Assembly: GCA_963731265.1 (NCBI GenBank)
Contig: CAVSUE010000001.1
Coordinates: forward strand, 1,152,001-1,216,000
DNA from: an uncultured Verrucomicrobiae bacterium
GTDB lineage: Bacteria > Chlamydiota > Chlamydiia > Chlamydiales > Rhabdochlamydiaceae
Direction: 5' to 3'
DNA: 64,000 nt
This document shows positions 26,659-34,968 of this stretch, one piece after another (the first letter of the stretch is position 1; each line of letters opens with the position of its first letter). The notes below the pieces were generated by a model that worked only from the letters and a program-made list of their open reading frames with translations, was not told the DNA's origin and did no database searches. A program made the position numbers and the translations under genes.

Positions 26659-27963
26659 ATGACGCAGATCACAACAGTTCATTCAACGAACTCTGCGTCC
26701 ATTATACCGGAGGATGCACCCATTTTGCAGATGCCTTTGGATATAGTCAGCCAAATATTCACCCACTCGAGCGGCCAAGAAATCGGAAGAAGTGCTCGAG
26801 TTTGCAGACAATGGCATCAGATGGTGAATGATTGCGATTGGAGCTTGCTCTTCTCTCATCATTTTCCAACGTTTGACTCTAGCGCCATTCAGAATTGCAA
26901 GGAGGCTTACCAAGCCCAATTCAAACCTAATTCAAACTTTACAAATGGGGTGTATGCTTCCTACACGCTTCAAGGCCATAAGGACGCGGTTCTCTGTCTT
27001 GGCTTTGCTAAAGGAAAGCTCATTTCAGGCTCTGACGACAACACCATCAAAATCTGGGATTTAGAAACGGGAGCCTGCACACAAACCCTTCAAGGCCATA
27101 ACGACTCGGTTTTCTGCGTTACCTTTGCTCAAGGAAAGCTCATTTCAGGCTCTCGTGACGACACGATCAAAATCTGGGATTTAGAGACGCGCGCCTGCAC
27201 ACAAACCCTTCAAGGCCATGACGACTCGGTTTGCTGCGTTGCCTTCGCTCAAGGAAAGCTCATTTCAGGCTCTGAGGACAGCACCATCAAAATCTGGGAT
27301 TTAGAAACGGGAGCCTGCACACAAACCCTTCAAGGCCATAACGACTCGGTTTTCTGCGTTACCTTTGCTCAAGGAAAGCTCATTTCAGGCTCTCGTGACG
27401 ACACGATCAAAATCTGGGATTTAGAGACCGGCGCCTGCACACAAACCCTTCGAGGCCACCGGAACACGGTTTGCTGCGTTGCCTTCGCTCAAGGAAAGCT
27501 CATTTCAGGCTCTGCTGACAACACCATCAAAATCTGGGATTTAGAAACGGGCACCTGCACACAAACCCTTCAAGAACTTAAGAGCTCGATTCTCTCCCTT
27601 GCCTTTGCTCAAGGAAAACTCATTTCAGGCTCTCGTGACAACACCATCAAAATCTGGGATTTAGAGACGGGCGACTGTACACAAACCTTTCAAGGCAATG
27701 ATGACAAGGTTAACTCCCTTGCCTTTGCTCAAGGAAAACTCATTTCAGGATCTGATGACTACTCCATCAAAATCTGGGATTTTATAGCGGGTCACCCCAC
27801 GGTCTTTCAAGAGATTGAGGAACTGTTAAAACAGGAAAATCCACAAGTGGTTGAGGATGCCCTTGAACGGTTTTCAAGAATGCCAAGAACAGCAAAAAAT
27901 GGGATGTATAGAAAGCTCTTTAGATCGCTGCCAGTGCCTATGTCCACCAATGGGGAATTTTGA
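26659..27963 (+). CDS. F-box / 7xWD40 protein, paralog 1
   Basis: ILQMPLDIVSQIF...ARVCRQWHQM F-box; seven 40-aa GH...WD repeats. Confidence 0.95.
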   Translation: MTQITTVHSTNSASIIPEDAPILQMPLDIVSQIFTHSSGQEIGRSARVCRQWHQMVNDCDWSLLFSHHFPTFDSSAIQNCKEAYQAQFKPNSNFTNGVYASYTLQGHKDAVLCLGFAKGKLISGSDDNTIKIWDLETGACTQTLQGHNDSVFCVTFAQGKLISGSRDDTIKIWDLETRACTQTLQGHDDSVCCVAFAQGKLISGSEDSTIKIWDLETGACTQTLQGHNDSVFCVTFAQGKLISGSRDDTIKIWDLETGACTQTLRGHRNTVCCVAFAQGKLISGSADNTIKIWDLETGTCTQTLQELKSSILSLAFAQGKLISGSRDNTIKIWDLETGDCTQTFQGNDDKVNSLAFAQGKLISGSDDYSIKIWDFIAGHPTVFQEIEELLKQENPQVVEDALERFSRMPRTAKNGMYRKLFRSLPVPMSTNGEF

Positions 27964-28138
27964 AGACGTGAAACCCTCTTCGATCTCGAGGAGTACACCA
28001 CTTATCGGCGCTCTCCGAATCTCAACCGAAAAATCTCTTTCAAATGGGAGAATAGAAGTTGGAAACCCAGAAGACGTGTAAGTGTAAAGATAAACACAAT
28101 TAAATTAATTAATAAGAAATAAAACACAGGAAAAAATT

Positions 28139-29449
28139 ATGACGCAGATTACAACAACTCATTCAACAAACTCTTCTGCGATTATACCGCAGGATGCACC
28201 CATTTTGCAGATGCCTTTGGATATAGTCAGCCAAATATTCACCCACTCGAGCGGCCAAGAAATCGGAAGAAGTGCTCGAGTTTGCAGACAATGGCATCAG
28301 ATGGTGAATGATTGCGATTGGCGCTTACTCTTCTCTCATCATTTTCCAACGATTGACTCGAGCGCCATTCAGAATTTCAAGGATACTTACCAAGGATTAT
28401 CCAAATTTAAATCAAACTTTCCAAACGGAGTGTATGCTTCCCATACTCTTCGAGACCATGAGGACGGGGTTCGATCAGTTATCTTTGATCAAGGAAAGCT
28501 CATTTCAGGCTCTGACGACAACACCATCAAAATCTGGGATTTAGAGACGCGCACCTGCACACAAACCCTTCAAGGCCATGAGAACGGGGTTTGCTGCGTT
28601 GCCTTCGCTGAAGGAAAGCTCATTTCAGGCTCTGCTGACGACACCATCAAAATCTGGGATTTAGAAACGGGAGCCTGCAGACAAACCTTTCAAGGCCATG
28701 AGAACACGGTTCTCAGCGTTGCCTTTGCTCAAGGAAAGCTCATTTCGGGCTCTTATGACGACACCATCAAAATCTGGGATTTAGAAACGCGCGGCTGTAC
28801 ACTAACCCTTCAAGGCCATGAGGACGGGGTTTGCTGCGTTGCCTTTGCTCAAGGAAAGCTCATTTCAGGCTCTGCTGACAACACCATCAAAATCTGGGAT
28901 TTAGAGACGGGCGACTGCACACAAACCCTTCAAGGCCATGAGGACTCGGTTCTCTGTCTTGTCTTTGCTCAAGGAAAGCTCATTTCAGGATCTAATGACT
29001 ACACCATCAAAATCTGGAATTTAGAAACGGGAGCCTGCACACAAACCCTTGAAGGCCATGAGGGCTCGGTTTGCTGCCTTGAGTTTGCTCAAGGAAAGCT
29101 CATTTCAGGCTCTGCTGACAACACCATCAAAATCTGGGATTTAGAGACGGGCGACTGCACACAAACCCTTCAAGGCCATGAGGACGGGGTTTGCTGCGTT
29201 GCCTTTGCTCAAGGAAAGCTCATTTCAGGATCTAATGACAACTCCATCAGAATCTGGGATTTTACAGCGGATCACCCCACGGTCTTTCAAGAGATCGAGG
29301 AATTGTTAAAAAACGAAAATCCAAACGTGGTTGAAGATGCCCTTGAACGGTTTTCAAGAATGCCACGAGCAGCAAAAAATGCGATGTATGGAAAGCTGGG
29401 TAGATTGCTGCTAGATCGCATGCCTATGTCCATCAATGGGGAATTTTGA
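28139..29449 (+). CDS. F-box / 7xWD40 protein, paralog 2
   Basis: Same architecture as paralog 1. Confidence 0.95.
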   Translation: MTQITTTHSTNSSAIIPQDAPILQMPLDIVSQIFTHSSGQEIGRSARVCRQWHQMVNDCDWRLLFSHHFPTIDSSAIQNFKDTYQGLSKFKSNFPNGVYASHTLRDHEDGVRSVIFDQGKLISGSDDNTIKIWDLETRTCTQTLQGHENGVCCVAFAEGKLISGSADDTIKIWDLETGACRQTFQGHENTVLSVAFAQGKLISGSYDDTIKIWDLETRGCTLTLQGHEDGVCCVAFAQGKLISGSADNTIKIWDLETGDCTQTLQGHEDSVLCLVFAQGKLISGSNDYTIKIWNLETGACTQTLEGHEGSVCCLEFAQGKLISGSADNTIKIWDLETGDCTQTLQGHEDGVCCVAFAQGKLISGSNDNSIRIWDFTADHPTVFQEIEELLKNENPNVVEDALERFSRMPRAAKNAMYGKLGRLLLDRMPMSINGEF

Positions 29450-33589: not shown

Positions 33590-33657
33590 AAACGTGAAAC
33601 TCTCTTCGATCGGCCCAGTAAATTAATTAAAACATAATAAAACACAGTAAAGTAATT

Positions 33658-34968
33658 ATGACGCAGATCACAACAATTCATTCTACAAACTTTGCGCCCT
33701 TAATACAGCAGGATACACACATTTTGCAGATGCCTAAGGATATAGTCAGCCACATATTCACGCACTCGAATGGCCAGGAAATCGGAAGAAGTGCTCGAGT
33801 TTGCAAACAATGGCATCAGATGGTGAATGATTGCGATTGGCGGCTATTCCTCTCTCGTCATTTTCCAACGGTTGACTCGAGCGCCATTCAGAATTGCAAG
33901 GGTGCTTACCAAGCGCTGTTCAAACCTTATTCAAATTTTACAAATGGAGTGTATGCTTCTCATACGCTTCAAGGCCATCAGCGCGGGGTTCTCTTCGCTA
34001 CCTTTGATCAAGGGAAAGTTATTTCAGGCTCTTATGACCGCACCATCAAAATCTGGAATTTAGAAACGGGCGGCTGCACACAAACCCTTCAAGGCCATCG
34101 GGACGCGGTTTGCTGCGTTGCCTTTACACATGGAAAGCTCATTTCAGGCTCTGGTGACTGGACCATTAAAATCTGGGATTTAGAAACGGGTGCGTGCACA
34201 CAAACCCTTGAAGACCATGACGATACGGTTCTCTGCCTTGCCGTTGCTCAAGGAAAGCTCGTTTCAGGCTCTGCTGACTGGACCATTAAAATCTGGGATT
34301 TAGAAACGGGCGCCTGCACACAAACCCTTGAAGACCATGACGACACGGTTCTCTGCCTTGCCGTTGCTCAAGGAAAGCTCGTTTCAGGCTCTGCTGACTG
34401 GACCATTAAAATCTGGGATTTAGAAACGGGCGCCTGCACACAAACCCTTCAAGGCCATCAGGGCGCGGTTAACTCCCTTGCCGCGGCTCCAGGAAAGCTC
34501 ATGTCAGGCTCGTCTGACACCAGCATCAAAATCTGGGATTTAGAAACAGGCGCCTGCATACAAACCCTTCAAGACAATGAGGACAGGGTTCTCTCCATTA
34601 CCCTTGCTCAAGGAAAGCTCATTTCAGGCTTTTCTGATGGCACCATCAAAATTTGGGATTTAGAAACAGGCGCCTGCACACAAACCCTTCAAGGGCCGGA
34701 GGACAAGGTTAACTCCCTTGCCTTTGCTCAAGGAAAGCTTGTTTTAAGCTTTAATCTCAATCCCATCAAAATCTGGGATTTTACAGCGGATCACAACATA
34801 GTCTTTCAAGAGATCGCTGAATTGTTAAAAAACGAAAATCCAAAAGTGGTTGAGGATGCCCTGGAACGATTTTCAAGAATGCCAAGAACAGCAAAAAATG
34901 CGATGTATGGAAAGCTATTTAGATTGGTGCTCGATCGCATGCCTATGTCCATCAAGGGGGAATTTTGA
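33658..34968 (+). CDS. F-box / 7xWD40 protein, paralog 6
   Basis: Same architecture; most divergent blades. Confidence 0.95.
   Translation: MTQITTIHSTNFAPLIQQDTHILQMPKDIVSHIFTHSNGQEIGRSARVCKQWHQMVNDCDWRLFLSRHFPTVDSSAIQNCKGAYQALFKPYSNFTNGVYASHTLQGHQRGVLFATFDQGKVISGSYDRTIKIWNLETGGCTQTLQGHRDAVCCVAFTHGKLISGSGDWTIKIWDLETGACTQTLEDHDDTVLCLAVAQGKLVSGSADWTIKIWDLETGACTQTLEDHDDTVLCLAVAQGKLVSGSADWTIKIWDLETGACTQTLQGHQGAVNSLAAAPGKLMSGSSDTSIKIWDLETGACIQTLQDNEDRVLSITLAQGKLISGFSDGTIKIWDLETGACTQTLQGPEDKVNSLAFAQGKLVLSFNLNPIKIWDFTADHNIVFQEIAELLKNENPKVVEDALERFSRMPRTAKNAMYGKLFRLVLDRMPMSIKGEF

Follow-up and report, generated by a model that had tools for sequence, protein, structure and literature searches.

Concerted evolution and partial-blade exchange in a tandem F-box/WD40 gene array of a chlamydia-like bacterium

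Introduction

In Podospora anserina, a fungus, the HNWD/NWD genes (het-d, het-e, het-r) carry WD units that are highly similar at the DNA level and are described as being exchanged both within a gene and between paralogs, giving rise to chimeric units (PMC1805685, PMC2873952). In HET-E, the propeller's top interaction face carries four positions reported to be under positive selection, one pair within the d-a loop and another within the b-c turn (Paoletti 2007, PMC1805685). Here, we describe a bacterial locus that can be compared with these genes: six tandem F-box/WD40 genes (P1 to P6; positions 26659-34968, plus strand) in a stretch of 64,000 nucleotides (nt), referred to below as the window, from contig CAVSUE010000001.1 (assembly GCA_963731265.1) of an uncultured bacterium assigned to the Rhabdochlamydiaceae. 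We find that the blade-coding units of the six genes evolve in concert. Stretches of approximately 100-1000 nt are copied within and between paralogs, in register or shifted by one, two, or four units, and these copies relocate two variable cassettes of the unit, its head (codons 5-12) and its middle (codons 23-25), creating chimeric blades. Units 1-6 are interchangeable; unit 7 and the strand preceding unit 1 are specific to their positions.

Among described systems, the Podospora HNWD/NWD genes are closest to the array in mechanism. In both, the units are similar in DNA (for all six array genes, Tandem Repeats Finder reports a period of 120 nt with 84-89% matches and 0% indels), exchange occurs within and between paralogs, and the same two loop elements vary. 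The array differs in pairing its propeller with an F-box rather than with HET/NACHT domains, in belonging to a bacterium rather than a fungus, in the strictly tandem arrangement of its paralogs, and in the absence of repeat-induced point mutation (RIP). Its units are 40 amino acids (aa) long, compared with 42-43 aa for fungal WD units (Dyrka 2014, PMC4986451), and their number is fixed at seven (36 of 37 genes, counting relatives), whereas 2-15 units are reported in Podospora, where the number is polymorphic (Paoletti 2007, PMC1805685). Mean within-protein identity among array units (68-79%) is lower than the criterion of at least 85% over at least 100 aa given by Dyrka 2014 (PMC4986451), although some pairs exceed it.

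In architecture, the closest counterparts are the eukaryotic FBXW receptors (beta-TrCP/FBXW1A, FBXW11, Fbw7, and Cdc4), which have in common with the array proteins an F-box, a helical linker, and a WD40 propeller. The blades of the eukaryotic receptors are old and diverged, whereas the array proteins are bacterial, have near-identical blades, and carry an extra three-helix C-terminal tail. In biology, the closest are the F-box, BTB, and RING families of the Parachlamydiaceae, in which eukaryote-like ubiquitination domains are joined to repeats and which, in these host-dependent chlamydiae, include tandem arrays and large expansions specific to a lineage (PMC4209131). These families carry leucine-rich (LRR) or tetratricopeptide (TPR) repeats, and the text that describes them does not contain the term WD40; it reports birth-and-death evolution, no convincing recombination, and purifying selection (Domman 2014, PMC4209131). 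The array differs from them in its pervasive recombination and in a ratio of nonsynonymous to synonymous p-distances (pN/pS) of >1 at top-face sites. In repeat similarity, the closest are recently amplified bacterial WD40 propellers (WRAP, 2ymu), which likewise have near-identical blades, a sign of recent amplification or homogenization (PMC9218822, PMC6805158). WRAP propellers form part of STAND NTPases, and their origin is discussed in terms of amplification from single blades (PMC9218822); the words gene conversion, recombination, concerted, hypervariable, and F-box are absent from that paper. Unlike these propellers, the array shows evidence of continuing exchange of partial blades among tandem F-box paralogs. 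Our searches, which covered open-licence papers and preprints, turned up no account of bacterial F-box/WD40 blades being exchanged.

Results

Architecture of the array

The array consists of six open reading frames (ORFs) with starts approximately 1379-1480 nt apart, all on the plus strand, as are the array coordinates given below. Each paralog encodes approximately 103 N-terminal residues with an F-box, seven WD40 units of 40 codons, and approximately 52 C-terminal residues that make up a short helical tail. P1 (26659..27963, 434 aa) has its units at 26968-27807 and ends in a short helical C-terminus, and P2 (28139..29449, 436 aa; units 28448-29287) is the protein chosen for AlphaFold2 (AF2) modeling. 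P3 (29518..30828, 436 aa; units 29827-30666) is the mosaic copy analyzed below; P5 (32279..33589, 436 aa; units 32588-33427) is followed by P6 (33658..34968, 436 aa; units 33967-34806), the most divergent paralog. P4 (30897..32246, 449 aa; units 31197-32048) has three codons fewer before unit 1, a four-codon insert in unit 7, and a C-terminal extension (32180-32246): 1 nt is deleted just ahead of the usual stop, so that translation runs on in a different frame into the conserved spacer and the protein stops 13 residues beyond the ends of its siblings. Unit spacing is exactly 40 codons in all six genes, the P4 insert being the sole change in length, and the intergenic spacers, which are conserved among the paralogs, belong to the larger repeat unit. 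All six ORFs are intact and in phase, the window contains no N, and the blade orders given here are those of the assembly.

Domain scans agree with this layout. An F-box was found in all four N-termini scanned (P1, P2, P4, and P6) at residues 22-65, with scores of 34.7-37.2 bits for PF12937 (cut-off 24.3) and 26.4-31.4 bits for PF00646 (cut-off 20.5); in P1, it occupies residues 22-59 with 35.8 and 31.2 bits, respectively. The WD40 family PF00400 matched seven stretches in each of P1-P5 and six in P6. An NTPase/STAND domain (NACHT/NB-ARC) was not found in Pfam scans of the array proteins.

Exchange of blade tracts within and between paralogs

A first-pass annotation of this DNA had proposed that blades are shuffled within and between paralogs across 26960-34790, a span close to the blade regions (26968-34806), and had read different blade orders in P1 and P3. 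We find these orders, a,b,c,b,d,e,f in P1 and a,b,c,c,b/d,e,f in P3, in both protein and DNA. When blades are designated by paralog and position, there are 0 nucleotide differences between P1b2 and P3b2, 0 between P1b3 and P3b4, and 2 between P1b4 and P1b2, and P3b5 is a chimera with a head from b and a middle and tail from d. In register, the blade regions of P1 and P3 differ at 30 of 840 positions, with 26 of the 30 mismatches falling between offset 98 of P3 unit 3 and offset 38 of P3 unit 5. With a shift of one unit (+120 nt), a source-like copy in P1 (27166..27393, from offset 78 of unit 2 to offset 65 of unit 4) matches an out-of-register conversion tract in P3 (30145..30372, from offset 78 of unit 3 to offset 65 of unit 5) exactly over 228 nt, with a log10 P from column frequencies of -18.5. 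The minimum extent of the shifted tract in P3 is 30165-30345 (181 nt). One out-of-register copy of 181-228 nt is thus enough to give a,b,c,c,b/d in place of a,b,c,b,d with no change in length, and one tract rather than several shuffles accounts for the difference in order between P1 and P3. Because the only d head is the one retained in P1, P3 is likely the derived form.

P3 also combines segments related to different siblings. Across the 179 sites at which P1 and P2 differ, P3 is P2-like at 10 consecutive sites (alignment columns 29-246), then P1-like at 60 of 61 sites (columns 256-622), P1-like again from column 851, and P2-like from column 1255. By these switches, P3 as a whole is a P2/P1/P2 mosaic, with P1-like blades flanked by P2-like ends.

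Within single genes, the copied stretches are shifted by one or two units. In P1, 27042..27188 is identical to 27282-27428 over 147 nt at a shift of 240 nt (two units), and the match extends to 201 nt with 2 mismatches. A 102-nt exact match at the same shift in P2 (28844..28945 = 29084-29185) brings the head of unit 4 near unit 7, and the heads of P2b4 and P2b7 are DNA-identical. The identity of P6 blades 3 and 4 pointed out in the first-pass annotation holds for the protein, with 1 nt of difference in the DNA (34207..34446); here, 34225-34329 matches 34345-34449 exactly, the match reaches 139 nt with 1 mismatch, and the two blades form a clade with support of 100/97. P4 units 3-4 and 5-6 (31437..31916) differ by 19 nt per 240 nt and form the clades {P4b3,P4b5} (98/94) and {P4b4,P4b6} (87/93); they represent an older intragenic duplication of two blades, which was absent from that annotation's list.

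Between paralogs, a two-blade cassette, HEDSVLCLVF / HEGSVxCLEF, occupies units 5-6 in P2 (28928..29167) and units 1-2 in P4 (31197-31436), as had been read from the protein sequences. Its two units show 6 and 10 differences, respectively, over 120 positions, with 59 identical nt at the start of the first unit. With 16 differences per 240 nt, P2b5-6 and P4b1-2 are the closest of 411 doublet pairs outside P1/P3 (median 36), and {P2b6,P4b2} is a clade with support of 97/89. Tracts also cover the unique parts of the genes. P2 and P3 are identical over 176 nt of their N-terminal regions (28219..28394 = 29598-29773), and the P3 C-terminal and intergenic segment 30721..30835 contains exact matches to P4 32103-32199 (97 nt) and P2 29370-29456 (87 nt). 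The mosaic N-termini noted earlier are present as sequence: P4 and P5 are 97-100% identical over their first 240 nt (synonymous p-distance [pS] 0.020), the motif KFKSNFPNGVYASHTLRDH is common to P2 and P5, and AQFK.NSNFT is common to P1 and P3. For P4 and P5, the run test described below gave no significant result.

Tests of exchange and of positional signal

The array contains 18 exact repeats of at least 75 nt, 8 of them out of register. We compared the out-of-register runs with a null in which codon columns were permuted among the 36 units in positions 1-6 (500 shuffles). The longest observed run, 228 nt, compares with a null mean of 63.6 nt and a null maximum of 100 nt, and five observed runs (228, 147, 140, 105, and 102 nt) exceed this maximum, in agreement with the proposed shuffling within and between paralogs. 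We also aligned the six genes in register (422 polymorphic sites) and applied a Sawyer-type run test (2000 permutations, Bonferroni correction ×15), in which 4 of 15 pairs were significant: P1-P2, P1-P3, P2-P3 (p = 0.0015; 0.022 after correction), and P3-P4 (0.030 after correction).

If blades had diverged in place, they would be expected to group by position, and strict positional clustering is refuted by the blade-level phylogeny. In a maximum-likelihood tree of all 42 units, unit 7 is the sole positional clade (100/100), and five starred clades mix positions. Outside P1 and P3, the nearest neighbor of a blade occupies the same position in only 2 of 24 cases, and doublets excluding P1-P3 comparisons differ by 36.6 nt per 240 nt in register and 36.0 out of register. 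Thus, by tree, by doublet distances, and by the subfamily identities given below, we found no positional signal among units 1-6.

Seven head types are common to two or more blades in protein. Five of these seven groups are DNA-identical, three of them across different positions. Since the synonymous sites match as well, we rule out a convergent origin of the shared heads. For the framework, pS among all blades is 0.155 and does not exceed the pS between paralogs in their unique end parts (0.177 for the N-terminal and 0.206 for the C-terminal part).

Variable sites and predicted structure

We next mapped variation along the unit. Among the 36 units in positions 1-6, codons 5, 6, 7, 9, 12, 23, 25, and 36 are hypervariable (at least 1.5 bits of amino-acid entropy), and 25 codons make up the framework. 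The same set, minus codon 12, was recovered independently in 51 units of relatives. At the sites defined on relatives, pN/pS in the window is 3.12 (bootstrap over blades, 2.36-5.57), compared with 0.95 at intermediate and 0.21 at framework codons; these values are uncorrected p-distance ratios from recombining, non-independent sequences and are descriptive only.

To place these sites, we used the AF2 model of P2, which has a predicted local distance difference test score (pLDDT) of 84.8, a predicted template modeling score (pTM) of 0.76, and 28 strands (7x4), most of the propeller being at pLDDT >90. By DSSP, codons 5-7 fall within the loop that precedes strand A, whereas the B-C turn takes in codons 23 and 25. 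In the model, variation is therefore placed mainly in the D-A loop and the B-C turn, which likely form the top face. The first strand is formed by residues 100-104, on the N-terminal side of unit 1, and only three strands come from unit 7. We infer that the unique N-terminal strand and unit 7 together close the propeller ring, and such closure would account for the position specificity of unit 7 and of the segment before unit 1.

In Foldseek searches, the best full-length matches of the model were Skp1-bound beta-TrCP/FBXW11 structures (query TM-score [TMq] 0.65-0.67, 384-389 columns), then Fbw7 and Cdc4, and the matches also include WDR5. By sequence, the Nostoc WD40 protein 2ymu was the best match in the PDB (9.1e-114), with WRAP-derived designs among the hits; matches to FBXW7 reached 1.8e-83 and those to FBXW1A 1e-60. 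With the C-terminal 53 aa of P2 as the query, three matches were obtained: a weak one to a 1203-aa protein, one to a 784-aa protein of 60-aa repeats, which looks spurious, and one to a 122-aa protein (P0131). P0131 consists of the C-terminal helical module alone and is 61% identical to residues 2-39 of the P2 tail, which suggests that the C-terminal tail is a separable domain.

Relatives and the family-wide pattern

The closest relatives of the array proteins are 67-74% identical and 676-680 aa long, with the same N-terminus, seven units, and approximately 240 extra C-terminal residues; other relatives are 430-530 aa long. With unit counts taken from an alignment of 31 relatives (A1), seven units are present in 6 of 6 array genes and 30 of 31 relatives. 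The earlier observation that the count stays at seven therefore extends to 36 of the 37 genes. The sole six-unit gene (P0025, 433 aa) has lost exactly one 40-residue unit, indicating that events that change the count do occur and are rare among surviving genes.

Each subfamily has a framework of its own that is common to all its units (for example, ...LETFTCIKT, ...LNTNTCLAT, or ...LKTGQCTAT). Between subfamilies, units at the same position are no more alike than units at different positions (identities of 0.527 versus 0.528, 0.531 versus 0.534, and 0.717 versus 0.718). Within proteins, unit identity is 63-82% across the family. Equal positional identities together with high identity within proteins are a signature of concerted evolution. 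Individual relatives show similar events: a blade shift that leaves the number of units unaltered separates P0003 from P0007, P0002 has three near-identical consecutive blades, and P0016 also contains a near-identical run.

Tandem F-box/WD40 arrays also occur in related metagenome-assembled genomes (MAGs), with 12 genes in L003+L004, 4 in L012, 3 in L009, and 2 in L001; one array of three genes lies in a Rhabdochlamydiaceae MAG. The twelve consecutive genes of L003+L004 (contig range 13976-36588; merged positions 937-19490) have a framework of their own (...IWDLNTNTCTAT), and the last gene carries two identical blades in succession. The chromosome studied here probably holds further, dispersed family members (P0008, P0009, P0011, and P0127), which comprise long forms of 676-678 aa as well as one form of 470 aa whose blade framework differs. 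In the dispersed long-form copies, no blade has >85% protein identity to any array blade, and exchange thus seems confined to the array; recent exchange with these copies is unsupported, as blade identities do not exceed 85%. The loop variation on the predicted top face, the family-wide pattern, and the mosaic structure of P3 go beyond what the first-pass annotation had described.

Genomic surroundings

Directly upstream of the array is a glycogen/starch-synthase-like ORF (23344-26643, plus strand, 1099 aa) with PF08323 at residues 534-771. Its N-terminal approximately 530 residues match no Pfam family, its TTG start is uncertain, and its stop lies 16 nt before P1. Downstream, P6 is followed by a terminator-like hairpin (35083..35102, plus strand; 6 of its 7 pairs are G-C), which is only a match to the consensus, and then by an ORF without a family at 35178-35996. 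Counts of such signals were not above those in shuffled sequence (12 promoter-like matches versus 12.1 expected and 6 terminator-like matches versus 12.1 expected).

Elsewhere in the window, a 206-aa SET-domain protein (12564-13184, minus strand; PF00856, 64.5 bits, cut-off 22.4) provides another eukaryote-like domain; its sole NCBIfam match, a partial one, is to the Legionella effector AnkI/LegAS4. A gene for a TnpB-family RNA-guided endonuclease (17644-19173, plus strand; 77.1 bits, under the cut-off of 100) is followed by an IS5-family transposase gene (19186-19944, plus strand; 188.8 bits), the two lying between the genes for glycerol kinase and glycerol-3-phosphate dehydrogenase. The window also contains a 3-deoxy-D-arabino-heptulosonate 7-phosphate (DAHP) synthase gene followed by a complete tryptophan operon (3-6964, minus strand; gene order along the window trpA, trpB, trpF, trpC, trpD, trpG, trpE), and a pyrophosphate (PPi)-phosphofructokinase gene. 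The named relatives of its cytidine triphosphate (CTP) synthase are MAGs of Verrucomicrobia (89%), Chlamydiota (81%), and Chlamydiales (80%).

Discussion

We consider it probable that the array reflects concerted evolution by gene conversion in a family of effectors of a chlamydia-like bacterium that are probably secreted and hijack the Skp1-cullin-F-box (SCF) ubiquitin ligase. The framework gives tens of identical bases between any two units, and the exchange breakpoints lie in near-identical framework segments. Homologous, mostly non-reciprocal recombination (gene conversion) would move the tracts, and rare unequal events that alter the unit count would be removed by selection for a closed seven-bladed propeller. 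The first-pass annotation had named conversion or such selection as what holds the count at seven; both are probably at work, as the tracts keep the count, yet P0025 lost one unit. Diversifying selection may act on D-A loop and B-C turn residues of the top face. The proteins would be secreted by a host-dependent chlamydia-like bacterium and plug as receptors into the host SCF ligase, with each paralog presenting a different top face and the array serving as a reservoir for assembling new target specificities. The Chlamydiota-type relatives of the CTP synthase, the SET-domain gene, and the F-box/WD40 arrays of related MAGs would fit such a host-dependent setting. More tentatively, the tandem effector array could be a cassette system in which partial blades are copied to build host-target faces under a seven-blade constraint.

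Several observations weigh against this interpretation. In 11 of the 15 pairs, among them P4-P5 (0.60 after correction), the run test is not significant, and support for the clade {P2b5,P4b1} is weak (86/39). Not all of the variable sites lie on the top-face loops, given that codons 9 and 12 belong to strand A and that strand D begins at codon 36. The sites used for pN/pS were picked for variability, and defining them on relatives removes this circularity only partly. The array copies lack the approximately 240-aa C-terminal domain of their closest relatives and could therefore be decaying or a subfamily that acts differently. Moreover, no secretion system genes or secretion signal were seen in the 64-kb window, and the six array proteins are absent from a protein collection that holds other apparent proteins of the same contig.

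An alternative is that the real genes are simpler than assembled (for example, that P3 equals P1), with mis-joins or short-read polishing across the near-identical 120-nt repeats having produced the blades that look shifted or chimeric. This last absence would fit such an origin. The array contains exact repeats of 332, 228, 176, and 147 nt, which could mislead an assembler or polisher, and mis-joins would also land in the shared framework, where the breakpoints lie. We nevertheless consider such an artefact improbable: the six ORFs are intact and in phase, the window has no N, the contig spans the entire 8.3-kb array, and like patterns occur in independent records (the P0003/P0007 shift, the near-identical triple of P0002, and the identical blades of L003+L004). 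The pairs P2b5-6/P4b1-2 and P4b3-4/b5-6 carry 16-19 differences per 240 nt, and substitutions accumulated in these older exchange pairs make recent mis-joins impossible there. If the genes are as assembled, the duplicated blades could instead have arisen through unequal crossing-over, in cycles of blade loss and re-amplification from one or a few blades with selection restoring seven, so that conversion would not be the main process. Subfamily-specific frameworks fit single-blade amplification as described by Pereira and Lupas 2022 (PMC9218822), and the adjacent duplicated blades in P6 (units 3/4) and P3 (units 3/4), as well as the relative that lacks one unit, are in line with it. However, both ends of the P1/P3 tract lie within blades and the tract replaces a stretch of equal length, which would take two exactly compensating unequal events; the two-unit-shifted tracts in P1 and P2 keep the count, as do 36 of 37 genes; and in-register tracts in the unique N- and C-terminal parts cannot derive from blade amplification. 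On balance, re-amplification as the main process seems unlikely to us, if somewhat less so than an assembly artefact. Plain birth-and-death, with tandem duplication, divergence, and convergent selection for shared blade sequences, would suit the tandem arrangement and the conserved intergenic spacers, and Domman 2014 (PMC4209131) describes evolution of this kind, without convincing recombination, for Parachlamydiaceae F-box families. It is hard to reconcile with shared heads that are identical in DNA in five of seven groups, with out-of-register runs far beyond the null, with switch points in P3 that misfit simple divergence, and with units 1-6 that lack positional signal, and we regard it as highly implausible.

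A different question is where the proteins act. They might function inside the bacterium, for example as sensors akin to STAND or nucleotide-binding leucine-rich-repeat (NLR)-like defense proteins with recently amplified WD40 propellers, with the F-box-like helices serving another partner. The best PDB sequence match is the Nostoc protein 2ymu, with WRAP-derived designs among the hits; a connection with innate immunity has been drawn for highly repetitive WD40 propellers of bacteria (Pereira and Lupas 2022, PMC9218822); and a secretion signal or system was not seen in the window. On the other side, the F-box scores above both Pfam cut-offs, the whole model superposes on Skp1-bound beta-TrCP/FBXW11 over 384-389 columns, the Pfam scans found no NTPase/STAND domain, and the relatives come from Chlamydiota-type MAGs. 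Bacteria are not known to have Skp1 or cullin, and known bacterial F-box proteins are secreted effectors. We therefore judge a role inside the bacterium to be about as improbable as an assembly artefact, and favor secreted effectors that evolve in concert by gene conversion.

A homogenized scaffold combined with diversified, recombined binding-face residues has so far been documented mainly in fungal immune receptors. If the cassette interpretation is true, the array would mirror, on the side of a symbiont or pathogen, the mechanism of the fungal HNWD immune receptors, and would be a case in which a bacterium diversifies a hijacked ubiquitin-ligase receptor by shuffling its repeats; bacterial F-box proteins are thought to redirect the host ubiquitin machinery. 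Arrays of this type are also a warning to annotators and assemblers, as long reads are needed to read them. If real, the array would offer a tractable natural system in which a closed propeller tolerates blade swaps and in which selection policing the number of units is visible, one relative having lost exactly one unit. It would also offer an intracellular bacterium a route by which to track changing host targets.

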